Below, piece after piece: positions 3,691 to 33,316 of a stretch of 33,716 nt of DNA (within the stretch, counting starts at the first letter, position 1; each line of letters opens with the position of its first letter). A program made the position numbers and the translations under genes. Below the pieces are notes generated by a model. That model was not told where the DNA came from and did no database searches. It saw nothing but the letters and a program-made list of their open reading frames with translations. The stretch is from Bacillota bacterium. Its GTDB lineage: Bacteria > Bacillota > Clostridia > Peptostreptococcales > Anaerovoracaceae. Location: the NCBI GenBank assembly GCA_017619385.1, contig JAFZSM010000074.1:1-33716 (forward strand), read 5' to 3'.

Positions 3691-5277
3691 ATGGACAACA
3701 TGGAACTAAAACCCGTTAAGGGTCTCGAAGAGTACGCCAGAAAACAGTTCACACACAATCATTTTATATATTACAGCCGTAAGGGAGCTTATGCGGAATG
3801 CCATTGCGCAGAATGCGGAAAGAGATATGTGCTCAGAGCTATCGAAACAGAGGATCCTTTTAAGGACATGGCATTGGATATCGAGAAGCCACAGAGAGAC
3901 ATGCCGACAGTATGCCGGGAATGCAAAATAAAAGCTATCTACAAACCCGCCAAACATACAAAAAGTGAGTACAGTTTTGGCAGAGTGTGTGTCGGCCAAA
4001 AAATAGACGATGAGCGTTTTGTCTTTAGAATCTACTACGTAACCCAACAGACAAGGCAAGGGCAGGATACATACTACAGCAGCACAGAAGATCACCGTAT
4101 ATTCCTCGAAAAAGGGCAAAAGCCGTCACGATACGATAATTACGGCACGAAATGGCATCAGAGCTGTGTGGGTGAAAACTGGTATTACATCGTATTTCCG
4201 AAGACATATAAAGAGATAGCAAAGACGGGGATGTTTAAGCATGTCCCTGTGGTCCCGTCCATCATGAATCACTGGAGAGATGATTGTGGGCTCATTTATT
4301 ACTATATTGCAGCTGCACGATATCCGGACTTTGAGATGATCATCAAAATAGGTCTCACAGAATACGCCGACAATCTGGTCAGAAAAATTCCGGTCAATCC
4401 CAATCCGAGAGGAAAGAAGGTAGAAGACAGACTCAGGATAAACAAAGACAGGCTCAAAAGTCTGATTGAGCAGAAAGGCGATAAGAAAACCCTCGAACTT
4501 TATCAGCTCGAAAGAAGACTTAAAGCCCACTGGACAGAAGAAGAACTTGAGATAATCAAAGCCCTTAAAGAGGCCACATACTCAACCGACTGGGAGAAAG
4601 CATCAAAGGCCTTAAAGTATATATCTCCGGTCCGCATGAGAAACTACATGAAGAAGCAGAAGATGTGGATGCCGGGAGAAAAAGCCACATGGCAGGAAAG
4701 GAACCGCCGCCAAGATCTCAGAAGAGAGTATTACGATTACATCTCCATGAGGATAAACGAAGGATATGATATGACAAGCGATGTAATCCTTTTCCCGTCA
4801 GACTTCAGAAGACGCAGGGACGAGATGATTTTAATGGTCGAAAAAGCCAAGATGGACAAGAGAAAGACAGAAGTGCTTGAGAGATTCCCTAAAATCAAAA
4901 CGAAGTACAAAAAGCTGTCAGAAAAGTATTCAGCGGCAGCAGGCGGTTACATCATCAGACCGGCCAAAGATGCAGCCGAGATCGTTGAGGAAGGAAGGAT
5001 ATTGCATCACTGTGTCGGCGGTGACGGATATCTAAGGAGCCATAACGACGGAAGAAGCTTTATCCTCTTCCTGAGAGAGATGAACAAGAAAGACATTCCG
5101 TTTATCACAGTAGAGATCAGGGACAAAGAAATCATTCAGTGGTACGGAGCCTACGATCAGAAGCCCAAAGCAAAACTGATTAACGCATGGCTTAAGACAT
5201 ATACAAAAGAGCTCTCCAAAAGAAAAAGAGAGACCAAAACCATAACAGCAAAGCCAAAAGCCGCAAAGACAGCATAA
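3691..5277 (+). CDS. PcfJ-like protein
   Basis: C-terminal block ILHHCVGGDGYLRSHNDGRSFILFLR....PFITVEI...IIQWYGAYDQKP resembles the PcfJ domain signature. There is also an N-terminal Cys cluster CHCAECG...CRECK. Confidence 0.55.
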   Translation: MDNMELKPVKGLEEYARKQFTHNHFIYYSRKGAYAECHCAECGKRYVLRAIETEDPFKDMALDIEKPQRDMPTVCRECKIKAIYKPAKHTKSEYSFGRVCVGQKIDDERFVFRIYYVTQQTRQGQDTYYSSTEDHRIFLEKGQKPSRYDNYGTKWHQSCVGENWYYIVFPKTYKEIAKTGMFKHVPVVPSIMNHWRDDCGLIYYYIAAARYPDFEMIIKIGLTEYADNLVRKIPVNPNPRGKKVEDRLRINKDRLKSLIEQKGDKKTLELYQLERRLKAHWTEEELEIIKALKEATYSTDWEKASKALKYISPVRMRNYMKKQKMWMPGEKATWQERNRRQDLRREYYDYISMRINEGYDMTSDVILFPSDFRRRRDEMILMVEKAKMDKRKTEVLERFPKIKTKYKKLSEKYSAAAGGYIIRPAKDAAEIVEEGRILHHCVGGDGYLRSHNDGRSFILFLREMNKKDIPFITVEIRDKEIIQWYGAYDQKPKAKLINAWLKTYTKELSKRKRETKTITAKPKAAKTA

Positions 5278-5294: not shown

Positions 5295-6551
5295 ATGTAC
5301 GAAATAACAGAACAGCCCTTTGAGACCTACGAGGCCTACAAGAACACGATGGATCAGGCGGTAGGGGCTACGGTCCAGAACATAGTCAAGATCGGATACC
5401 TCTTAAAGGTTGCCCGTGACACCGGTATCCTTCAGGAGTCCGGCTACACAACCATGAGAGACTTTGCACAGGCAGAATACAACATTGACGCATCCACAGC
5501 ATCACGCTTTATCGGGATCAATGACAGATATTCCCTGGGTGGCAATTCCATGATGCTGGATGAGAAGTACACAGGCTTTGAGACATCAAAGCTCGCAGAG
5601 ATGCTTACTCTCCCGGATTCAATCATCGAGGAAATCCCTCCGGAAATGAAGAGGGGTGAGATCAGAGAAATCAAGTCCCAGCTGAAGGGAGAAGAGAAGA
5701 CCTCAGACATGGAAGTCCTGATAGAAAAGTGCGAGACCGCCCCGACAGGAGATTCCGATCTGGCAGCAGTCTTAAGACAGACACTTGAAGAGAACTATGA
5801 GATGTTCAAGGAGGTCGACAAGCTCGTATACGACGGATGCAAGCACGAAGAACTCTATGAGGCACTTGCTCCGGCAGGATATGCAGCTCTTATCGGCAGG
5901 ATTCCCGGCAAGGGAAGAATGATGCTCTCCATCAAGTCTCAGAGCGAGACTCCCGTTCTCATCAACATCAGAACAAATGAGAAAGAGGAGTGTTCCTGGG
6001 ATCAGATATTCGACGAACTCGATTATTTCATCAAGTACCCGAGCGATACTCCGGATCCTGTGGCGGATTACAAAGAGACATTCAGTCACGCTCCGAAGGT
6101 GGAAGAGAAGAAGACTTCCGCAGTGACGGTATCTGAAAAAGCAAAGCCCAAAACGGACAAAAAACCGCAAAAAGCGAACGAAAAACCTCAAAAAGCGTAC
6201 GAAGAAGAGCCAAAAACGGAAGAATTATCAGAGAAATCGGAAGAACCGGAAGAGACAGCAGGCGAGGAAGTACCTTACCCGGATGGAGAAGACCCCGATA
6301 TCACACATGTGTCTCCCGATGACCCTCTCCCGGAAGAAGACTCCGGGGCAGCAGGCGTAGAAGAGGAAATTGCGCCGGCGCAACCCGAAACGGAGCACAG
6401 GGAGCTGACATCATTCCAGAAGCAGGTCATTGATAAGCTGAAACTGGTTGAGAGCATCATCGCAGGCATGGAGACCACAAAAGAGAACTGGAACAAGGTC
6501 AACGATATGCTCCGGGACACCATAACACTTATAAACAAGTCAACATTCTAG
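5295..6551 (+). CDS. Hypothetical protein with a globular N-terminal domain and an acidic Lys/Glu/Pro-rich low-complexity linker
   Basis: Long ORF with RBS AAAGGAG. The low-complexity segment is KPKTDKKPQKANEKPQKAYEEEPKTEELSEKSEEPEE. No family recognised. Confidence 0.5.
   Translation: MYEITEQPFETYEAYKNTMDQAVGATVQNIVKIGYLLKVARDTGILQESGYTTMRDFAQAEYNIDASTASRFIGINDRYSLGGNSMMLDEKYTGFETSKLAEMLTLPDSIIEEIPPEMKRGEIREIKSQLKGEEKTSDMEVLIEKCETAPTGDSDLAAVLRQTLEENYEMFKEVDKLVYDGCKHEELYEALAPAGYAALIGRIPGKGRMMLSIKSQSETPVLINIRTNEKEECSWDQIFDELDYFIKYPSDTPDPVADYKETFSHAPKVEEKKTSAVTVSEKAKPKTDKKPQKANEKPQKAYEEEPKTEELSEKSEEPEETAGEEVPYPDGEDPDITHVSPDDPLPEEDSGAAGVEEEIAPAQPETEHRELTSFQKQVIDKLKLVESIIAGMETTKENWNKVNDMLRDTITLINKSTF
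6162..6203 (+). repeat. In-frame 21-nt tandem duplication (KPQKANE / KPQKAYE)
   Basis: AAACCGCAAAAAGCGAACGAA is followed directly by AAACCTCAAAAAGCGTACGAA, with 19/21 identity. Confidence 0.8.
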
Positions 6552-7821: not shown

Positions 7822-7839
7822 GTTTTGTATTGCCCGGAT

Positions 7840-8017
7840 ATACCCCCATATATTCAATACCCTCCCCCTCCTCCCATATACCGCAGGGGTAGTGATTACC
7901 CCCGCCCCTGCGAATACCGTAGCCCCACAGTGCACGGCATACGAGGAGAGAGAACAGGAAAGGAACTGAGGAAGTGGCAGCGGTTTTATTTAACCCCGCC
8001 CCCCTCTGAAAGATACC
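7840..8017 (+). promoter_or_regulatory. C-rich non-coding tract with repeated ATACC motifs; candidate late promoter/activator sites or packaging-recognition region
   Basis: ATACC at 7840, 7857, 7878, 7914 and 8013, plus ATTACC at 7895. The only ORF across it (7825 onward) would give an implausible Pro-rich N-terminus. Confidence 0.3.
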
Positions 8018-8022
8018 CAGGC

Positions 8023-8367
8023 ATGAGACAGAAGCGCCCCGATCATGAAGGCCCCCAGCGGTCATCGTTCGAGAAGAACAAGAAGAAGATATTATTGTCA
8101 CAGGATGTGTGTGGAATATGTGGCAAACCAGTGAACAAGAAGCTCAAGTATCCTGATCCGATGAGCGCTTGCATTGATCATATTATTCCGATTGATCGTG
8201 GTGGAGATCCATCAGCGATAGAGAACTTACAGCTTGCTCATCTGTCATGCAACAGACAGAAGAGTGATAAGATTCTTCAGTCAGTCAAAGATGAACCACA
8301 AAAGAAGGCTAACAACCGGGATCTTCCGTTGAGCTTTGATTGGGCAAATTACAAGGCGGCTGATTGA
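8023..8367 (+). CDS. HNH endonuclease (packaging-associated type)
   Basis: CGICGKPV....DHIIPIDRGGDPSAIENLQLAHLSCNRQKSDK is a canonical HNH motif. The internal ATG 8023 gives a phage-typical 114-aa protein. Confidence 0.85.
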   Translation: MRQKRPDHEGPQRSSFEKNKKKILLSQDVCGICGKPVNKKLKYPDPMSACIDHIIPIDRGGDPSAIENLQLAHLSCNRQKSDKILQSVKDEPQKKANNRDLPLSFDWANYKAAD

Positions 8368-8491: not shown

Positions 8492-8935
8492 ATGACGAAA
8501 GCGCAAATAAGACGAAATTTTATAAAGAAACGCAGTAAGGAAGCGGATTACGACCCTGAAAAGGACCCTACCTTAGAACGAGACGTTTTAGTCACGTTTT
8601 GGTCACAAAAAACCACCGAAAAGATGAAGAATCTGGGTACTTATTTACCCGAATTTGACGATGAGATAAAAAGATATGCCGGATATGTGGCCGACTATGA
8701 ATTGCTCTCTCCGGAGATTAAAGGTCCGGAGGATATGACCACAGAGTCGGCAGCAGGCACAGAGAAAACAAGTCCGCTGGTCAGGATCATCGAGAACCTG
8801 CGGAAGGATATCATGATGGAGGAAGACAAGCTCCTGCTTACAGCAAGAGAATATTATAAATTATTCCCGCCGGAAGGCTCGGGAGACAGCAAAGAGGAGA
8901 AGCTTCAGAGCATTCTCGAAAAGATAAAGGGATAA
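8492..8935 (+). CDS. terS: Candidate terminase small subunit (P27-family-like)
   Basis: Position directly after the HNH gene. Pattern DDEIKRYAGYVADYELL....GTEKTSPLVRIIENLRKDIMMEEDKLLLTAR resembles P27-type small terminases. TerL is not adjacent. Confidence 0.45.
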   Translation: MTKAQIRRNFIKKRSKEADYDPEKDPTLERDVLVTFWSQKTTEKMKNLGTYLPEFDDEIKRYAGYVADYELLSPEIKGPEDMTTESAAGTEKTSPLVRIIENLRKDIMMEEDKLLLTAREYYKLFPPEGSGDSKEEKLQSILEKIKG

Positions 8936-12242: not shown

Positions 12243-13634
12243 ATGGCACGGATTGGAAGCCAGATGCCCACTCAGTCCGCGATAATTCCATACACGGAGA
12301 CCAAAGGAAACGAGGCAGCGAAGCTCTACGCACTGACCGGCAAAGAGCTTATGGAGTGGCAGCAGGGCGTTCTTAAGAACATGATGGCTGTCACAGCTGA
12401 AGGCTTGTGGACTCACATCAAGTTTGGATATTCCGTATCCAGACGAAACGGCAAGACCGAGATGGTTTATGCAAGAGAGATGTGGGGATTGCTTCACGGA
12501 GAAAAGATTCTCCATACGGCACACCGTACAGATACGGCGCACAGTTCCTGGGAATGTCTTTACGAACTTCTCAAGAAGGCAGGCATTCCCATTGAGCACA
12601 CCTTCAGAGCCAACGGCAGAGAGCATATATTTGTCACCGGCGGAGGCCGCATCGAGTACCGTACCAGAACATCAAAGGTCGGACTCGGCCAAGGCTATGA
12701 CCTGCTCGTGATAGATGAGGCACAGGAGTACCAGGACGATCAGGAGACCGCCCTTAAGTACATCGTCACAGCATCGAAGAATCCGCAGATAATCATGCTC
12801 GGAACACCGCCGACGGCAGTAAGCTCCGGAGATGTCTTCAACCGACTAAGGAGTGAAATCCTTGCAGGCAAGACAACAGATTCCGGCTGGGAAGAGTGGT
12901 CGGTAGAATCTCAGCACGATCCGCACGATGTGGATGCGTGGTACCTGACAAACCCGGCGCTCGGAATAACACTGAAGGAAAGAGATATTGCCGCAGAGAT
13001 TACCGGCGATTCACTTGACTTCAATATCCAGCGTTTAGGCTTATGGATCAAGTACGACCTTAAGTCAGCCATTCCGGAAGCGGAGTGGGAAGCTCTCAAG
13101 GTCAAGAATGTTCCGAAGCTCGACGGAAAACTGTGTGTAGGCATCAAGTACGGTAAGGACGGAGAGAATGTATCAATGTCCATCGCTGTAAGAACAGCCA
13201 CCGGAAAGATATTCGTTGAAGCCATTGATTGCCGCCCGATTAGGAACGGCGATACATGGATGCTGAAGTTCCTTAAGACCGCAGACATTGCACAGGTCAT
13301 CATAGACGGAGCAAGCGGTCAGCAACTCATGAAAGAGCAGATGCATGAGGCAAAGATAAAGCCTATCCCGGTTCTTCCGACAGTCAAGGAGGTCATAACA
13401 GCCAATGCGGTATTTGAGCAGGCTCTGGAAGCCAAAGAAATAAGGCATGCAGGGCAGAAATCACTTACCCAGGCAGTTACGAACTGTGACAAGAGAGCCA
13501 TAGGCTCAAACGGCGGTTTCGGGTTTAAGAGCTTGAAGGAGGATATCGATATCAGCCTCATGGATTCCATGATACTTGCTCACTGGGCATGCACCCGTGT
13601 TAAGAAACGAAAGAAACAAAAGGTAAGCTATTAG
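12243..13634 (+). CDS. terL: Terminase large subunit
   Basis: Walker A-like SRRNGKTE and Walker B LLVIDEAQEY, with a C-terminal nuclease-like half. RBS GGAGGG. Confidence 0.85.
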   Translation: MARIGSQMPTQSAIIPYTETKGNEAAKLYALTGKELMEWQQGVLKNMMAVTAEGLWTHIKFGYSVSRRNGKTEMVYAREMWGLLHGEKILHTAHRTDTAHSSWECLYELLKKAGIPIEHTFRANGREHIFVTGGGRIEYRTRTSKVGLGQGYDLLVIDEAQEYQDDQETALKYIVTASKNPQIIMLGTPPTAVSSGDVFNRLRSEILAGKTTDSGWEEWSVESQHDPHDVDAWYLTNPALGITLKERDIAAEITGDSLDFNIQRLGLWIKYDLKSAIPEAEWEALKVKNVPKLDGKLCVGIKYGKDGENVSMSIAVRTATGKIFVEAIDCRPIRNGDTWMLKFLKTADIAQVIIDGASGQQLMKEQMHEAKIKPIPVLPTVKEVITANAVFEQALEAKEIRHAGQKSLTQAVTNCDKRAIGSNGGFGFKSLKEDIDISLMDSMILAHWACTRVKKRKKQKVSY

Positions 13635-13659
13635 AGAGGAGCCGACAAGGCTCTTTTTT
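13635..13659 (+). terminator. Weak terminator-like hairpin plus T6 after terL
   Basis: GAGCC-GACAA-GGCTC stem-loop, extendable with G-T/A-T pairs, followed by TTTTTT. Confidence 0.3.
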
Positions 13660-13708
13660 AATACAATTTTACGCTCACCACGCGGATAAGTGGGGAAAGG
13701 ATAAGAAC

Positions 13709-24362: not shown

Positions 24363-26261
24363 ATGGGCTTAATATCACCGACATATTTGAATACGGAAGA
24401 CATGAAGGCAGGGAAGTATCTGGGACTCACACCGAAACCCTGCGCTTCCTTAAGAGTCATTCCGGGAGATCAGAAGGTAACGATATATGTTACCGATGCA
24501 TCTGACACTGTTATCGATAATCAGAAGCTGGTTAAGGTAGCAGGAACAAAAGTAATGTACAAAACAGGGTCAGTTCCGGCAGGTCCGGACGACGGCACGG
24601 AAGTATTTACCAGTACTCCGGGACAGTATGACACGACCGGCTACGAACTTACCGGACTGACCAACGAGACGACATATTATTTCGCAGCGTATACAATCTC
24701 TGATCACGGCATGACATGCCTTGAAGGAGTCCAGGCATCCGCCACACCTGATGAGGCAGAAGTGTGCGTGGTAAACGTGGCAACTTCAGATTCCCTTGCA
24801 AGCATTGCAAATGATGTCGTAGCAAGGGTTACTCTTACCGATGCAACATTAGGAACGACACAGGAAGCCGTGATATCCGGCGGAGTAGGAAGTACGAACT
24901 TCACGATTCCGGCCGGAGACTCATATCATATCTCCCTGAAGCTTCAGCAGGTATCCGGAGGAGTATACACCGATATAGCATATTATCAGGGAACCGATGA
25001 TATTCACATCGTGACCGATCCGACATCAGCTGATTATACGGCCGTAGTAGGAAATACGCGCACCGTCAACATGACAGTGCAGCAGGCTCACCTTTACGGA
25101 TACAACCTCGCTAAGAGCAATTCGTCACCTTCAGGAAGAGTGACATATCCTGCGGATGTAAACAATGAGAATTTCACTCCTTTTTCCATGAACTTCTCAG
25201 CAGGCACTCCGAACTATGGAGGATGGTCCGAGTCCCAGGATGACATATTCTTCATGCCTAAGCCTTGCATGCTCAATCCGGACGGAACAGTCGAGTACTA
25301 CTTAAGTATTTCAGACTATTCCAAGCAGGAAGACGGCGTAACGGCAGCAGATATCACCGATTCTGCGAATACCGGCAAGAATGCAATGATGGAGTGGCCT
25401 AAGATCTGGACAAAGAGATGGGAAGAGAACGGAGTATATTACTTCAGATGCTCTGATGTACAGATCGATGAGGATTACGATTGCATCTGCAACTATGACG
25501 CAAATGATCATCAGATCGACCACTTCTATACTGCAATATACTTCGGTTCCAACAAGTCGAGCAAATTGAGATCCGTATCCGGCGGTACCAATATGGTATC
25601 CCAGACCGGAACGACAGAGATCTCTTACGCAAAGGCAAACGGAGACGGATGGGACATTGAAGTACTGGCAGACAGATTACTGATCGCAGACCTACTTGTG
25701 CTCATGGGCAAGTCAACAGATACACAGAGCGTTTACGGATATGGTCATGCGAACTCTTCAAGCGCATACGGACAGGGTACCATGAATGCAAGAGGATTGT
25801 TCTATGCAACCAGCGCAACAGCTGACTGCTATCTGAAGGTCTTCGGCATGGAATTCTACTGGTCTAACCTGTGGAGAAGATGTGAAGGCCTTGTGACGGA
25901 TGCAAACTCTAAGATCCTTTATAAGCTGACAGCAGGAAGACATGATGGCACTACAGCGGACGGATACAACACCACCGGAGCCGGATATAAGACAGCTGGA
26001 ACGGCAGCAGGCACATCCGGAGGATATATCAATGAATGCGCGGTGACAGACGGCGGAAGAATCCCCGTGACCGCATCAGGATCCTCATCCACTTACGAGT
26101 GTGATGGATTATGGTTCGCGGCTTCCTGCTTCGCGATTGTCGGCGGCAACTGGAGCTATACCCTTCTTGAGGGCGCGTTCTACGTGTGCCTGAGCTCCGC
26201 GGTGTCGTATTCCTACACGAGCATTGGGGCGGTGCTCTCTTGTAAACCACTTGCGGCTTAA
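24363..26261 (+). CDS. DGR target protein: fibre-module (putative receptor-binding) protein with an FN3-like N-terminal region and a C-terminal variable region
   Basis: The FN3-like segment is YELTGLTNETTYYFAAYTISDHG. The last ~48 codons (AASCFAIVGGNWSYTLLEGAFYVCLSSAVSYSYTSIGAVLSC) carry the VR. Confidence 0.85.
   Translation: MGLISPTYLNTEDMKAGKYLGLTPKPCASLRVIPGDQKVTIYVTDASDTVIDNQKLVKVAGTKVMYKTGSVPAGPDDGTEVFTSTPGQYDTTGYELTGLTNETTYYFAAYTISDHGMTCLEGVQASATPDEAEVCVVNVATSDSLASIANDVVARVTLTDATLGTTQEAVISGGVGSTNFTIPAGDSYHISLKLQQVSGGVYTDIAYYQGTDDIHIVTDPTSADYTAVVGNTRTVNMTVQQAHLYGYNLAKSNSSPSGRVTYPADVNNENFTPFSMNFSAGTPNYGGWSESQDDIFFMPKPCMLNPDGTVEYYLSISDYSKQEDGVTAADITDSANTGKNAMMEWPKIWTKRWEENGVYYFRCSDVQIDEDYDCICNYDANDHQIDHFYTAIYFGSNKSSKLRSVSGGTNMVSQTGTTEISYAKANGDGWDIEVLADRLLIADLLVLMGKSTDTQSVYGYGHANSSSAYGQGTMNARGLFYATSATADCYLKVFGMEFYWSNLWRRCEGLVTDANSKILYKLTAGRHDGTTADGYNTTGAGYKTAGTAAGTSGGYINECAVTDGGRIPVTASGSSSTYECDGLWFAASCFAIVGGNWSYTLLEGAFYVCLSSAVSYSYTSIGAVLSCKPLAA
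26118..26243 (+). repeat. DGR variable repeat (VR)
   Basis: 126 nt aligning without gaps to 26345-26470 (offset 227). There are 16 differences, all opposite template adenines. Confidence 0.9.
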
Positions 26262-26273
26262 GGAGAGGGTGAA

Positions 26274-26309
26274 TTGCGCCCGGCGCAAGAGGGGGAACCC
26301 TTGGGTTCC
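26274..26309. promoter_or_regulatory. Two GC-rich inverted repeats 3' of the VR: TTGCGC-CCG-GCGCAA (26274-26288) and GGAACCC-TT-GGGTTCC (26294-26309)
   Basis: Read directly. They begin 31 nt after the end of VR homology. Their position resembles the hairpin/cruciform element that assists target recognition in characterised DGRs. Confidence 0.5.
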
Positions 26310-26344
26310 TCCTGATTAACTGAATAATAACAGGGACATATGTG

Positions 26345-26470
26345 GCGGCTTCCTGCTTCGCGATTGTCGGCGGCAACTGGAACAATACCCTTCTTGAAGG
26401 CGCGTTCTACGTGAACCTGAACAACACGGTGTCGAATTCCAACACGAACAATGGGGCGGTGCAATCTTAT
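26345..26470 (+). repeat. DGR template repeat (TR)
   Basis: Non-coding copy of the VR. It contains about 30 adenines and nine AAY codons in the VR frame (NN..N.NN..N.N.NN). It lies 116 nt upstream of the RT start. Confidence 0.9.
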
Positions 26471-26585
26471 CTATTTTCGGAACTGACAACTAAAAGCCAC
26501 ATATGCTCCTCACCCCTTGGTGAAAATAAACTCGATGCAAGCACGGGTCAGTAGCTTGTCGAAAGCCCGTGAGAGGATAAGAGAC

Positions 26586-27689
26586 ATGAAATCCTACAGC
26601 CACTTATATGAAAGGGTGATATCAAGGGAGAACAGGCTTGAGGCCGTAAGGCTCGCAAAGCATTCTCCAAGAATCAGAAAAGCAATCAAGGAATCAGGAA
26701 AAACAGATGAAGAGATAGCAGAAGAGGCTTATGAGTGGATTGTGAATTTCAAGAATGCCCACCATAAGCCTATTAAGATTAAAGACGGAATGTCCAAGAA
26801 GGAGCGGACGATCATTGTTCCGACACTGGAAGAGCTGATAGTACAACATGCACTCATCAACGTACTTAAGCCAATCTTCACAAGGAGCATGTATGAGCAT
26901 TCTTACGCATCACTTCCGGGCAAAGGAGCTCATGCCGGAAAGAAGGTTATTGAGAGATGGATCCGGAACGACGGACGGAATTGCAAGTACTGTCTAAAGA
27001 TGGATATCAGACACTTCTTCGACAGTGTACCACATGACATCTTAAAGGAGAGAATTGTAAAGACCTTCCATGACGAAAAGATATTACGGATGATGCTTGA
27101 ACTCGTGGATGTGACCGAGACGGGATTACCACTTGGATTTTACACGAGCCAGTGGTTTTCAAACTGGTACCTGACACCACTCGACCATTATATCAAGCAG
27201 AGCCTAAAGGCCGAGCATTACATGAGATACATGGACGATATGGTCATATTCGGATCCAACAAGAAGAAGCTCCACCGAATGAGGAAGGACATCCAAGAGT
27301 ATCTTGAAAAGAATCTCGGGCTTACCTTAAAGGACAACTGGCAGGTGTTCAGATTCTCATACATAAGAGGTGGAAGAGAACACGGAAGAGACCTTGATTA
27401 CATGGGATTTCGGTTTCATAGGAACAGAACGACCTTAAGACGGTCGATTATGTTAAAGGCATCCAGGAAGGCAAAGAAGATAGCAAAGAAAGAAAAGCCT
27501 TCGCTTTACGAGATAAGACAGATGCTTTCATATCTCGGATGGATAGATGCAACAGACACCTACAGATTTTATGAGGCCCACATAAAGCCTTATGTAAATT
27601 TTCAAAAATGCAAGAGACGGCTTTCCATTGCCGCCAGAAGGGAGAACAGAAATGGAGTGGAAACATGTAGAGTCCAAACAGTCACCTGA
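26586..27689 (+). CDS. DGR reverse transcriptase
   Basis: RT motifs are CLKMDIRHFFDS (motif A), LPLGFYTSQ (DGR-type [ILV]GxxxSQ) and YMRYMDDMVIFG (YxDD). ATG 26586 follows GAGAGGA; the listed ORF begins at GTG 26517. Confidence 0.9.
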   Translation: MKSYSHLYERVISRENRLEAVRLAKHSPRIRKAIKESGKTDEEIAEEAYEWIVNFKNAHHKPIKIKDGMSKKERTIIVPTLEELIVQHALINVLKPIFTRSMYEHSYASLPGKGAHAGKKVIERWIRNDGRNCKYCLKMDIRHFFDSVPHDILKERIVKTFHDEKILRMMLELVDVTETGLPLGFYTSQWFSNWYLTPLDHYIKQSLKAEHYMRYMDDMVIFGSNKKKLHRMRKDIQEYLEKNLGLTLKDNWQVFRFSYIRGGREHGRDLDYMGFRFHRNRTTLRRSIMLKASRKAKKIAKKEKPSLYEIRQMLSYLGWIDATDTYRFYEAHIKPYVNFQKCKRRLSIAARRENRNGVETCRVQTVT

Positions 27690-27942
27690 GCTTGTAGATG
27701 CAACCTCATGTCCCGGTAAGGTTTATGTCCGCAAGGATGTAAAGGAGATTACCCGCGACGGGGAAACATATTACGAGTATCAGGAAGCCCTCATGTCTCA
27801 GGAACAGTATCAGAGTTATTCCGGACAGAAGATCGAGGGTACCGGCACAAACGACAATCAGACAGTTATCATGAGCGCCCTGGCAGACATGGCTGAGATG
27901 ATCATGGATCTTCAGATGCAGATAATGGATATGCAGGCGTAA
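27652..27942 (+). CDS. Hypothetical acidic protein
   Basis: ATG 27652 follows the RBS AAGGGAGA and overlaps the RT 3' end by 38 nt. No family recognised. Confidence 0.4.
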   Translation: MEWKHVESKQSPELVDATSCPGKVYVRKDVKEITRDGETYYEYQEALMSQEQYQSYSGQKIEGTGTNDNQTVIMSALADMAEMIMDLQMQIMDMQA

Positions 27943-30961: not shown

Positions 30962-32026
30962 ATGAAGGAACCCCGGACATACAAACATCTCACAAAGACG
31001 GACAGGCTACGGATTGAGAAGTGGCTTAAGATAGGTATGCCCAAAAAGGAAATCGCAGCAAAGATCCGCGTGGATGTATCCACCATTTACAGAGAGATCA
31101 ACCGGGGACAATATGAAAGACTCGACGGTGCAACATGGGAGATGGAGACCGCATACAGCCCGGATATCGCTGAAGAAAGATACAGAGCCAACCTCAAAGA
31201 CAAAGGTCCCGACCTTAAGATCGGAAACAATCAGGCGCTTGCGGATTACCTTGAGAAGATAATGACGGAAGATAATTACTCTCCGGCAGCAGCGCTTGCC
31301 AAGGCAAAGGAAGAAGGCTACGAGGTCAACATATCCATTCCGACTCTTTATAGCTATATTGAAAAAGGCGTGTTCCTTCACCTGACAATGCAGAAGCTCC
31401 CTAGGCATGGAAAAGGTTCGCACAGATACAGCAAAAAGAAAGAGACCTCCCGCCCGCCGGCAGGAGAGAGTATAGAGAAGCGTCCTGAAGAGGTAAAGGA
31501 CAGAGAAGTATTCGGACACTGGGAAGGCGATACCGTCTATTCCGGAAAGAAGAAGAAAACAAAGTCCGCTCTCTTCACAATCACCGAAAGGAAGACCAGA
31601 CAGGAGATTATCATCAAAGTGCCGAACCGCGAGGCCGAGACGATAGTAAAGGCAATGGATGCTCTTGAGAGGAAATGGGGACCGGTAAACTTCAGAGCCG
31701 TGTTCAAGTCCATTACCTTCGACAACGGATCCGAGTTCGCTATGTCCGATGAACTTGAGGCATCCTGCATCAATAAGACCATTCCCAGGACGAAAATATA
31801 TTACGCTCATGCATACAGCTCCTTTGAGCGTGGTACCAACGAGAACCAGAATGGAATGATCAGAAGGAAGCACCCGAAAGGCACTGACTTTGATGATATA
31901 TCAAAGGAAGAGCTGAAGGAGACGGAGAACTGGATAAACGACTATCCCAGGAAGATTTTAGGATACAAGAGCAGCAACAAGGCTTTCAAGGAAGAATTAG
32001 AGAAACTGGGTATCAAGGCAGCATAA
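30962..32026 (+). CDS. IS30-family transposase
   Basis: N-terminal HTH (EIAAKIRVDVSTIYREINRG). DDE region is HWEGDTV ... ITFDNGSEF ... GTNENQNGMIRR, typical of IS30. Confidence 0.9.
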   Translation: MKEPRTYKHLTKTDRLRIEKWLKIGMPKKEIAAKIRVDVSTIYREINRGQYERLDGATWEMETAYSPDIAEERYRANLKDKGPDLKIGNNQALADYLEKIMTEDNYSPAAALAKAKEEGYEVNISIPTLYSYIEKGVFLHLTMQKLPRHGKGSHRYSKKKETSRPPAGESIEKRPEEVKDREVFGHWEGDTVYSGKKKKTKSALFTITERKTRQEIIIKVPNREAETIVKAMDALERKWGPVNFRAVFKSITFDNGSEFAMSDELEASCINKTIPRTKIYYAHAYSSFERGTNENQNGMIRRKHPKGTDFDDISKEELKETENWINDYPRKILGYKSSNKAFKEELEKLGIKAA

Positions 32027-32350: not shown

Positions 32351-33316
32351 ATGAGTGATGAATTTGTAACACAGACAGAGGAAGCCGTTGATACAGCTGC
32401 CGAAACATTTGAATACACTGCTGAAGATGCTGCTGAAACAGAAGAAACAGGAAACCTGGCTGACTACGAGGCTCCCAGGACAGGTAAGGTCGGAGCATAT
32501 CTTTTCGGTCTGCTCGTATTCCTGGTACTTACCGTGGCAAGCACCATAGTTTCAATGATAGGAACATTTCCGCTGCAGCAAAGAGCAGTGCTTGCATCAG
32601 GAGGAGATGTAGCCAAGGCTCAGGAACTTCTGCTTGCCGAAATGGAAAATTCACCGCTTGTTCCGATAACGCAGTTTTTTGCTTCATTTATCATGTTCGT
32701 GATCGCCGGATTATGGTATTTCTTTAAGTTTTATAAGCCGGCAAAGGAGGAGGGAAGGGTAACCCCGATACTTCCGAAGATCATGAACCTTAAGACCATA
32801 TTGCTTATAGTATTCGGAACAACGAGCGCATATGCCCTTGCAGTACTTCTTCAGTATGGAATGACTCTTCTTATGCCTGACTATGCCAGCGCAATAAATT
32901 CCGTTTTGGGAAGCGCACTTAACGGAGTGATGGGTATCATCGCCGGTGTTCTGCTGGCGCCTCTTGCAGAGGAGATAGCAGTACGTGGTCTTATATTAAG
33001 ACGTGCGGAAAAGTCATTCGGACTCGTTGGATGCATGATCATTTCGGCCGTATTTTTCGCTGTTTTCCACCTTAATCCGATACAGAGCGTTTATGTGATT
33101 CCAATGGGTCTGTTCTGGGGATATATCGGATATAAGTATAAGTCAGTTATTCCGTGCATCATCTGCCACCTTGTAAATAATCTGATAGCTGTAATTATTT
33201 CCTCATGGGCAGATGGCATAAATGTGCGTAATGCGATCATTTTTGCAGCAATTTTTGTTGTCTGCGGAGTTATAACATTCTTTGCGATAAAGATGCCTGA
33301 AAAAGAAACAGCCTGA
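32351..33316 (+). CDS. CPBP-family intramembrane glutamic endopeptidase (CAAX protease-like), host gene
   Basis: Multi-pass membrane protein with LAEEIAVRGL (EExxxR), FAVFHL (FxxxH) and CHLVNN (HxxxN) motifs. Confidence 0.8.
   Translation: MSDEFVTQTEEAVDTAAETFEYTAEDAAETEETGNLADYEAPRTGKVGAYLFGLLVFLVLTVASTIVSMIGTFPLQQRAVLASGGDVAKAQELLLAEMENSPLVPITQFFASFIMFVIAGLWYFFKFYKPAKEEGRVTPILPKIMNLKTILLIVFGTTSAYALAVLLQYGMTLLMPDYASAINSVLGSALNGVMGIIAGVLLAPLAEEIAVRGLILRRAEKSFGLVGCMIISAVFFAVFHLNPIQSVYVIPMGLFWGYIGYKYKSVIPCIICHLVNNLIAVIISSWADGINVRNAIIFAAIFVVCGVITFFAIKMPEKETA

Follow-up and report, generated by a model that had tools for sequence, protein, structure and literature searches.

Diversity-generating retroelements (DGRs) are, to our knowledge, the only system found in nature that hypermutates proteins of prokaryotes and their viruses in a targeted way; in phages they drive switches of host range. 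The accessory protein Avd is found in 74% of DGRs and is not universal; in Bordetella phage BPP-1, whose reverse transcriptase (RT) requires it, Avd tethers the template RNA to the RT for primed cDNA synthesis. The BPP-1 cassette runs mtd-avd-TR-brt, and the RNA motif RT-10 was placed in its spacer by Weinberg et al. (PMC5737381). Architecture A1, with the order target-VR, TR and RT and no accessory gene, accounts for 75 of the 372 DGRs surveyed by Wu et al. (2018; PMC5758913). The lack of Avd is a known trait of Architecture A and RT Lineage 3 DGRs, Avd-independent homing has been inferred for the avd-less group, and CH1, an acidic protein of 160-169 aa without motifs, is restricted to DGRs that lack avd (PMC5758913). 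In the same survey, 34% of DGRs have, downstream of the VR, an inverted repeat rich in GC (PMC5758913). A literature search found no experimental proof of the mechanism for Architecture A / Lineage 3 DGRs.

The window analysed here, the whole stretch of 33,716 nt, covers most of a metagenomic phage contig of 35.6 kb and very probably carries a DGR of the accessory-gene-free layout, in which a target gene with a 3' VR, a TR and an RT gene follow one another on the plus strand. The target gene (24363-26261, 632 aa) holds the VR as codons 586-627 (26118-26243), and the non-coding TR (26345-26470) lies 83 nt past the target stop codon and 115 nt ahead of the RT gene (26586-27689, 367 aa). As in BPP-1, TR-to-VR transfer appears adenine-specific, a tail-fibre gene carries the VR at its 3' end, a GC-rich block precedes VR-specific bases in an IMH/IMH*-like arrangement, a GC-rich inverted repeat lies past the VR, and a structured RNA lies between TR and RT. 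Unlike BPP-1, there is no avd, and the gap between VR and TR is 101 nt, whereas that of BPP-1 holds a whole gene. The gene order is that of Architecture A1, and the likeness to RT Lineage 3 of Wu et al. (PMC5758913) is one of gene layout and published descriptions rather than of tree placement. The DGR is a clean but ordinary instance of an already described accessory-gene-free type. The reading of the region as a DGR in the earlier note was borne out by mismatches confined to TR adenines, a DGR-like RT, a C-type-lectin-like target fold and a VR that varies among relatives, and its word "complete" holds for an avd-less Architecture A1 element, no Avd homolog being detectable. Its term "prophage" is unsupported, because the phage contig carries no host flank; near relatives of the phage are all on contigs of 33-36 kb.

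The closest cultured relative found is Butyrivibrio phage Arawn (MN882550, genus Arawnvirus), which differs in host and genome but has TMP, Dit, Tal, a 328-aa protein, target, TR, RT, small ORFs and endolysin in the same order. Identity is 42% for the RT and 35% for the C-terminal module of the target, and the TR/VR mismatches of Arawn are at adenines in nine of nine cases; in its GenBank record the RT bears only the name "putative reverse transcriptase", and the target is called hypothetical. A megablast search with the cassette returned no matches among GenBank phages. The parent clade is very large and consists of gut and rumen Clostridia phages, in which loci number in the hundreds and protein clusters hold thousands of VR variants. 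The compact layout and adenine-biased mismatches recur in 126 of 130 related loci (2113 A versus 111 non-A mismatches). No study of the mechanism of this avd-less Clostridia phage clade was found in the literature.

Re-alignment of the VR and TR gave 126 nt without gaps and 16 mismatches, all at TR adenines and at exactly the positions listed in the earlier note. The TR has 30 adenines in 126 nt, and the chance that all 16 mismatches would fall on them is about 2e-12 (hypergeometric). Homology ends at both edges of the 126-nt segment, and no additional VR-like copy was found within the window when both strands were searched. Read in the VR frame, the TR contains ten AAC/AAT codons rather than the nine first counted; the nine changed ones do encode S, Y, C, S, S, Y, Y, S and I, and the AAC at codon 596 is the sole one unchanged in the present allele. 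An ORF at 26342-26554 (70 aa, GTG start) was considered as a gene and rejected, as it is the TR read in the VR frame, spans the TR and the RNA motif and has no matches. The minus-strand ORFs of the region are short and unsupported.

This pattern bears directly on the idea of an ordinary duplication, in which two copies were kept alike by recombination while positive selection acted on the fibre tip, with no reverse transcription involved. Phage tail genes are indeed mosaic, diversifying selection often acts on receptor-binding tips, and the N-terminal parts of this target do recombine, as 632-aa and 640-aa forms adjoin the same RT. However, such a process cannot restrict changes to the adenines of the non-coding copy in 16 of 16 cases here and in 2113 of 2224 over the 130 loci, silent adenine sites change as well (for instance GAA>GAG at 26398), and the non-coding copy always adjoins a DGR-type RT. 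We give this explanation next to no probability.

The 3' end of the VR (26226-26243) has a putative IMH, in which the GC-rich block GGGGCGGTGC (26226-26235) is followed by the VR-specific TCTCTTGT; the IMH*-like end of the TR (26453-26470) has AATCTTAT after the same block. Three of the 16 mismatches fall here (TR positions 26463, 26464 and 26469), where AA..A in the TR stands against TC..G in the VR. Because these differences are fixed in eight of eight related TR/VR pairs of the sub-clade, including one at a synonymous site, they are best read as IMH/IMH*-type boundary differences that mark the end of the tract and not as current mutagenesis. The synonymous site is the third codon position of a Leu and is always C, on which ground the reading of the last three mismatches as mutagenised sites kept by selection was rejected. 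An equivalent fixed pattern of C/G versus A is present at the 3' end in the sub-clade whose RTs are 64% identical. The rewritten tract would extend at least over 26136-26224. It had been suggested that about half of some 30 adenines differ; the 30 adenines were confirmed, and with the three boundary mismatches set aside 13 of the 27 available adenines differ.

Downstream of the VR are two GC-rich inverted repeats, read from the sequence, the first at 26274-26288 (TTGCGC-CCG-GCGCAA) and the second at 26289-26312 (GAGGGGGAACCC-TT-GGGTTCCTCC), which has no subsequent T-run and was not called as an intrinsic terminator. The hairpin at the position equivalent to the first repeat covaries in relatives (CTGC-GTAA-GCAG, CCTC-GTAA-GAGG and GACGGC-GTA-GCCGTC). 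Support for these hairpins is a per-locus count with controls over 72 loci, in which GC-rich perfect hairpins were found past the VR in 47 and past the TR in 7, with 2.5 expected from shuffles. RNAalifold on a MAFFT alignment of the region downstream of the VR returned no structure, this indel-rich region having failed to align.

Comparison with relatives shows a directional flow from TR to VR. The VR is hypervariable in close relatives and the TR conserved; at the DNA level the related contigs hold eight distinct VR alleles, five of them from more diverged relatives, and contigs that share an identical RT differ hardly at all in the TR. Non-adenine differences are few, with one within the tract in locus L155 and one at the last aligned base in L157, and the rare TR polymorphisms are mirrored in the cognate VR (A>C at 26363, C>T at 26416, and AAT>ATC in L154-L156). 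In a protein cluster built at 90% identity, the 15 members listed have 16 of 17 variable sites of residues 586-632 at TR-adenine codons, with up to nine residues per site, and 36 variable sites in residues 1-585, mostly two-state. From these sequences the element appears to have been recently active, rewriting what is probably the receptor-binding tip of a gut-phage tail fibre.

Evidence of activity comes from comparison between samples, and that diversity was seen only in this way counts in favour of a relic, a cassette that has lost retrohoming and keeps the TR/VR pattern from the past activity of an ancestor. Against this, the RT reading frame is unbroken and retains every catalytic motif, and neither the TR nor the RT-18 RNA nor the hairpins are damaged. 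Three of the eight VR alleles, with mismatches at TR adenines only, adjoin RTs of 100% identical protein sequence, and 14 different VR peptides were present among the 15 listed cluster members of at least 90% identity. Several assemblies also break precisely on the TR's first base, the outcome to be expected if the assembler is confused by a repeat or a variable copy. A relic is thus improbable here, and an element that was active in the recent past remains the preferred reading.

The RT (pI 9.9; RVT_1, E 9.6e-20; PHROG 1423, E 5.9e-102) most likely starts at the ATG at 26586 and not at the TTG at 26517 of the mechanically called ORF. The motifs LGFYTSQ and YMDD that had been reported are present, the former conforming to the DGR motif 4 pattern [I/L/V]GxxxSQ, and both motifs are shared with the BPP-1 RT. 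The protein aligns end to end with the 328-aa RT chain of PDB 8ub7, which we take to be the Bordetella phage bRT, at E 4.6e-31 compared with 2e-18 for group II RTs, and in the alignment R74 and I181 of that chain correspond to R and L here. Unlike the BPP-1 RT, it is 367 aa long and runs on past the 328-aa chain in a basic C-terminal extension of some 40 aa. Matches in a tblastn search with the RT include DGR-bearing crAss-like and Bordetella phages, and by its database matches the protein is nearer to DGR RTs than to other classes.

An RT from another retroelement or defence system, such as a group II intron, a retron or Abi/DRT, lying near a repeat by chance, would account for the fact that generic models match the palm and fingers (TIGR04416 at 116.6 bits; PADLOC RT, DRT and retron models). 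All these matches, however, are far under the curated cut-offs, and the RT scored below every curated NCBIfam cut-off for group II intron, retron, Drt and AbiA RTs (116.6 versus 300 for TIGR04416, and 77.6 versus 200, 73 versus 235 and 25 versus 250 for the others). No maturase domain or intron RNA domain was found, RT-18 being the sole Rfam match, and the best full-length match is the 8ub7 RT chain, with the DGR-specific motif 4. The chance of such an origin appears very small, and the protein is treated here as a DGR-type RT.

The spacer between TR and RT holds a predicted structured RNA, Rfam RT-18 (RF03021), at 26511-26583 (plus strand), which scores 51.9 bits against a gathering threshold of 41.3 over the full model (1-84). 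It differs from the RT-10 of the BPP-1 spacer, stops 2 nt upstream of the RT start codon and takes in the ribosome-binding region. Of 20 loci scanned, 14, among them an identical-RT copy, have RT-18 or RT-17 in this position, and compensatory changes support the RT-18 consensus structure in nine of ten RNAalifold pairs (35 loci). A search for a promoter-like site upstream of the TR was negative, and for this reason the TR is assumed to be co-transcribed with the fibre gene. The locus connects two Rfam orphan motifs, RT-18 and RT-17, with the template-spacer position of DGRs.

The target (PHROG 5302 "tail protein", E 3e-81) is, as first described, the last structural gene of a TMP/Dit/Tal/fibre block. 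AF2 modelling of the full-length protein with 66 close homologs alone gave pLDDT below 50 at residues 460-632, and a usable model was built by adding a second, distant homolog set. In the AF2 models residues 1-250 form beta-sandwich domains and residues 251-632 a predicted receptor-binding module resembling Mtd and TaqVP. The C-terminal 382 residues reach a pLDDT of 96.4, and the modelled fold of this VR-bearing domain is C-type-lectin-like, in agreement with the earlier expectation, resembling the DGR variable proteins TaqVP and Mtd and then FGE and C-type lectins. TaqVP and Mtd were the sole PDB matches in Foldseek at E<=1e-3; weaker ones included FGE, ovocleidin-17, TvpA and snake-venom C-type lectins, and the BFVD matches were gut-phage tail collar fibre proteins. 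Thermus aquaticus TaqVP (PDB 5vf4) is the top match, over its full 381-residue chain (E 3.4e-9, probability 1.00), but with a TM of 0.46 and identity of 12-14%, and it is a cellular rather than a phage variable protein. The module also aligns over the entire chain of BPP-1 Mtd (~380 residues), although identity is ~10%, the TM is 0.31 and the target here has ~250 extra N-terminal residues. Searches of Pfam and NCBIfam with the target and its C-terminus, and of PDB sequences with a family HMM profile, gave no meaningful matches; the fold was recognised by structure comparison alone.

The absence of Avd, and of any other recognised accessory protein, was counted against the DGR reading, given the need of the BPP-1 RT for this protein, and it is consistent with the known Architecture A. 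No gene of the phage had an Avd-type Pfam match, and there is no room for an avd gene between VR, TR and RT. The sole small basic ORFs encode a DUF5361 tail chaperone and, 19 kb away, a weak DUF1492-like protein, for which no PDB match to Avd was found. Past the RT, and overlapping its 3' end by 38 nt, is a small acidic ORF (27652-27942, plus strand; 96 aa, pI 4.4). Its homolog lies directly 3' of the RT in 84 loci, and a small acidic ORF occupies the post-RT position in almost all loci. The 96-aa protein had no Pfam, PHROG, PADLOC or NCBIfam match and no tblastn match among GenBank phages, and a word-based homolog search recovered 41 close relatives only, all in DGR phages. By description it resembles CH1 as a small acidic protein after the RT, but it is shorter, and versions of 161-163 aa, with a tail-assembly-chaperone domain, occur only in some distant relatives. 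Some post-RT small ORFs in relatives have Phage_tail_APC or XkdX C-termini, and the more probable reading of the acidic ORF is as a tail or fibre-assembly gene rather than a part of the DGR. A tentative and rather unlikely proposal is that the work of Avd is done here by the RT-18 RNA together with the basic C-terminal extension of the RT and/or the small acidic protein. If true, the acidic protein would be a new DGR accessory factor and the orphan RT-18 would gain a function.

By homology with Bordetella phage BPP-1, we infer that the RT would bind a transcript that contains both the TR and the structured RT-18 spacer, and the roles given here to cDNA synthesis, priming, the RNA, the hairpins and receptor binding follow the same homology. 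The RT would then make a TR cDNA, copying C, G and U faithfully and inserting any base opposite adenine, and this cDNA would replace the VR as far as the GC-rich block GGGGCGGTGC. The VR-specific bases past this block and the downstream GC-rich inverted repeats may single out the VR rather than the TR as the recipient. As an outcome, 16 codons would be rewritten on a C-type-lectin-like fibre tip, for up to about 3e15 peptides, most likely altering which host surface receptor the phage binds.

To summarize, this example brings no new principle to DGR biology. Its new details are an RT-18 RNA with covariation in the TR-RT spacer, GC-rich hairpins after the VR and a clade-wide acidic ORF that overlaps the RT. 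With a TR, an RT-18 RNA and an RT, with or without the 96-aa protein, in about 1.6 kb, the locus offers a compact test case for Avd-independent mutagenic retrohoming.

The element formed by the target gene, the variable repeat (VR), the template repeat (TR) and the reverse transcriptase (RT) is a genuine, recently active diversity-generating retroelement (DGR), diversifying an Mtd/TaqVP-like tail-fibre tip. Compared base by base, the 126-nt segments at 26118-26243 (VR) and 26345-26470 (TR) align without gaps and differ at 16 positions, all of them adenines in the RT-proximal copy, exactly as listed in the earlier note, and their similarity ends at both borders. Of the TR bases, 30 are A, 34 are C, 33 are G and 29 are T; 16 mismatches placed at random would hit only adenines with a probability of 2e-12. 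A search of the window for the TR on either strand, with A as a wildcard, revealed no further TR-like copy. The nine AAC/AAT codons that had been counted in the VR frame of the TR are in fact ten, of which nine are changed to S, Y, C, S, S, Y, Y, S and I, as claimed, while codon 596 is still AAC in the window's VR allele.

Not every mismatch is a product of mutagenesis. The last three (TR 26463, 26464 and 26469; AA..A in the TR, TC..G in the VR) are identical in all eight TR/VR pairs of the sub-clade, and no homolog departs from the Leu-Ser-Cys encoded at the VR 3' boundary. At 26464 the VR always has C, although this is the third position of a Leu CTN codon and every base there would be synonymous. 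Since a silent site would not stay fixed under mutagenesis with subsequent selection, the three bases lie outside the rewritten tract, and 13 of the 16 mismatches, at 13 of the 27 available adenines, reflect mutagenesis. The three bases are preceded by the GC-rich GGGGCGGTGC, and in BPP-1 the 3' boundary elements IMH and IMH* are likewise placed after a GC-rich block (PMC5758913). Relatives whose RT is about 64% identical have a like boundary design, with GGCGCGGCTC followed by TCTCTTGT in the VR and TATCTTAT in the TR. The VR of one related locus (L072) carries the TR-type base at an otherwise fixed boundary position (CTA, not CTC), which may represent a rare homing event reaching further 3'.

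Related contigs provide further evidence of activity. An RT protein of identical sequence is encoded on eight metagenomic contigs, and the VRs of those with both repeats, namely the window and the close copies L001 (the same as L008) and L004, differ from one another. Each VR differs from its own TR at 16 (window), 18 (L001) or 17 (L004) positions, every one a TR adenine. At two places (26363, A>C; 26416, C>T) a TR polymorphism also occurs in the cognate VR, indicating that sequence is transferred between the copies and that scrambling is limited to adenines. A like pattern is seen in five relatives at greater distance (L151, L154-L157), including a TR change from AAT to ATC mirrored in the VR, with non-adenine exceptions at one site within the tract in L155 and at the last aligned base in L157. 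Three of the eight contigs, independent Logan assemblies of this phage (L002, L003 and L005), start exactly at TR base 1, as happens when an assembler meets a repeat; in practice, TR/VR pairs thus seem to break up short-read assemblies and to leave DGR targets under-assembled.

The encoded proteins are similarly variable. Among the 13 closest target homologs, residues 400-590 are almost invariant and the last 40 hypervariable, and the 15 listed members of the target's own 90% cluster carry 14 different VR peptides, so the VR is far from invariant in relatives. Within this cluster, residues 586-632 vary at 17 sites, with as many as nine residues at a single site; 16 of these sites are at codons with a TR adenine, and the remaining one, F606Y, is seen in a single member. 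Residues 1-585 contain 36 variable sites, mostly two-state and with linked counts. At AAC/AAT sites, all observed residues fall within the 15 amino acids reachable from NNC/NNT. In theory, the 27 adenines that lie 5' of the boundary allow about 3e15 peptides. Among clusters of related targets at 90% identity, P0081 and P0086 have 5235 and 6359 distinct member sequences, far above their neighbours, which would fit massive micro-diversity of the VR across public data.

The RT (26586-27689, + strand; 367 aa) matches RVT_1 and PHROG 1423 (E = 5.9e-102), and most likely starts at ATG 26586, after a GAGAGGA ribosome-binding site, rather than at the mechanical TTG 26517. Among solved structures it is closest to 8ub7_A (328 aa, 'Reverse transcriptase'; alignment over residues 3 to 329, E = 4.6e-31), which we take to be the Bordetella phage bRT from the bRT-Avd-RNA cryo-EM work (bioRxiv 10.1101/2023.10.23.563531). 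The previously noted YMDD and LGFYTSQ motifs align to YMDD and IGSLTSQ, respectively, with an Arg aligned to R74 and a Leu to I181. Membership of another RT class was weighed: group II intron RTs are the next solved relatives (E = 2e-18), but scores against the NCBIfam group II intron RT/maturase, retron, Drt and AbiA models are all far below the curated cut-offs (116.6 vs 300, 73 vs 235, 77.6 vs 200 and 25 vs 250), and Rfam found no intron or retron RNA. Clade RTs range from 339 to 479 aa. Residues 328-367 of the window RT (27570-27689) form a basic C-terminal extension of about 40 residues (pI about 10) without counterpart in the 8ub7 RT chain.

The target (24363-26261, + strand; 632 aa; PHROG 5302 'tail protein', E = 3e-81) lies downstream of tape-measure (PhageMin_Tail), Dit (SPP1_Dit), Sipho_Gp37/Tal-like and 328-aa structural genes. 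Sequence methods find nothing in its C-terminal domain, and an initial AF2 model based on 66 close homologs was of no use past residue 460. Across the clade, divergence of the C-terminal 380 residues tracks that of the RT. After the addition of 120 distant homologs, found with the target of the related locus L036, residues 251-632 were remodelled from 126 sequences (mean pLDDT 96.4, pTM 0.95). At E<=1e-3, a PDB structure search with this model returned only DGR variable proteins, TaqVP 5vf4 (3.4e-9) and five Mtd variants (about 1e-4), each covering the whole of the approximately 380 residues; formylglycine-generating enzymes, ovocleidin-17, TvpA and snake-venom C-type lectins come next, beyond that threshold. 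BFVD gave 41 matches (TM up to 0.93), mostly gut-phage 'tail collar fiber' proteins and crAss-like tail fibres. As such, the model supports the CLec-type, Mtd-like fold proposed in the earlier note. Separately, several targets of the 64%-RT sub-clade (L011, L070, L088 and others, at about 3950-4450) have within them a direct repeat with a length of about 185 nt and an identity of about 60%; its mismatch spectrum is unbiased, and it is probably a tandem duplicated beta-sandwich domain unrelated to the DGR.

The TR-RT spacer is predicted to be structured: across 35 diverse spacers, RNAalifold predicts 10 pairs, nine of them kept through changes on both sides. The RNA motif RT-18, or the related RT-17, was found at the same spacer position in 14 of 20 loci scanned, one being an identical-RT copy of the phage. 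Weinberg et al. (2017; PMC5737381) linked RT-10 alone to a DGR, in the BPP-1 spacer, and left the other RT motifs to speculation. In the present avd-less DGR, RT-18 occupies the equivalent place, and its assignment to the DGR spacer position is a useful by-product. Two inverted repeats follow the VR on the + strand, at 26274-26288 (TTGCGC-CCG-GCGCAA) and 26289-26312 (GAGGGGGAACCC-TT-GGGTTCCTCC), and relatives have hairpins at matching places with different but complementary stems, many with a GTAA loop. Counted per locus as perfect GC-rich stems of at least 6 bp within 100 nt after the repeat, hairpins follow the VR in 47 of 72 non-redundant loci and the TR in seven (2.5 expected from shuffles); the post-VR region is indel-rich. 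No T-run follows the hairpins, a terminator scan does not call them, and no sigma-70-like promoter was found between target and TR; we infer co-transcription of the cassette and the fibre gene.

None of the phage's genes has an Avd-type Pfam match, and the space between VR, TR and RT is too small for a gene. The only small basic ORFs are a DUF5361 tail chaperone and, 19 kb away, a DUF1492-like protein with no match to any solved Avd. An acidic ORF (27652-27942, + strand; 96 aa, pI 4.4) overlaps the RT 3' end by 38 nt and by description recalls CH1 of Wu et al.; a homolog directly follows the RT in 84 loci, and a small acidic ORF (pI 4.1-4.9) occupies this place in nearly every locus, even where RT identity falls to about 30%. 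Since every detectable homolog belongs to a DGR phage, co-occurrence cannot separate an accessory role from that of a phage neighbour. Versions of 161-163 aa carry a Phage_tail_APC (tail assembly chaperone) domain, and one carries Phage_XkdX, which fits an ordinary gene following fibre genes in Firmicutes phages, and an accessory role in the DGR seems unlikely.

The window makes up the first 33.7 kb of a metagenomic scaffold of 35.6 kb. The label 'prophage' is not established, as genes are phage-like throughout and every near relative is a contig of 33-36 kb, never a segment of a long bacterial one, though the presence of integrase-type genes points to a temperate phage. The protein of one relative takes its name from a Mogibacterium sp. 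MAG, and the closest genome match is a 28-kb contig binned as Bacteroidaceae, which may be an artefact. After the endolysin, an IS30-like protein (30962-32026, + strand; 354 aa, HTH_38 and rve) is encoded where L154 has a tyrosine integrase and HTH repressors in the opposite orientation (12685-13692, - strand), and is either a swapped lysogeny module (DDE-type integrase) or an inserted IS. A 321-aa protein (32351-33316, + strand) with a CAAX protease/Rce1-like (CPBP) domain (E = 1.2e-19), not found at the corresponding position of L001-L003, may be a moron for, e.g., immunity or superinfection exclusion. The replication region encodes REP_ORF2-G2P-like (1997-2755, + strand; 252 aa) and PcfJ-like (3691-5277, + strand; 528 aa) proteins. 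The latter was rejected as large terminase. The likely TerL-like gene is at 12243-13634 (weak TerL_nuclease match), with HNH (7825-8367) and small-terminase-like (8492-8935) genes both well upstream.

Relatives of the RT number 60 in species-representative genomes, mostly gut/rumen Clostridia and including Clostridium leptum DSM 753, and more than 300 in IMG/VR. The order VR, TR, RT holds in 126 of the 130 loci with enough upstream sequence (median gaps 106 and 159 nt), and mismatches in related loci fall on 2113 adenines vs 111 other bases. In L039 (RT 32% identical), 139-nt repeats in the VR/TR positions (5066-5204 and 5340-5478) have 15 non-adenine and two adenine mismatches, and may be a decayed or non-canonical DGR. 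The closest cultured phage, Butyrivibrio phage Arawn, shares the gene order, with an RT 42% identical and annotated as putative only, and nine of nine TR/VR mismatches at adenines. This layout without accessory gene is that of Architecture A1, accounting for 75 of 372 DGRs, and RT Lineage 3 is avd-less, with Avd-independent homing inferred (Wu et al., 2018; PMC5758913). The window DGR is a member of this already known avd-less architecture, and its locus offers a compact candidate system for studying Avd-independent retrohoming.
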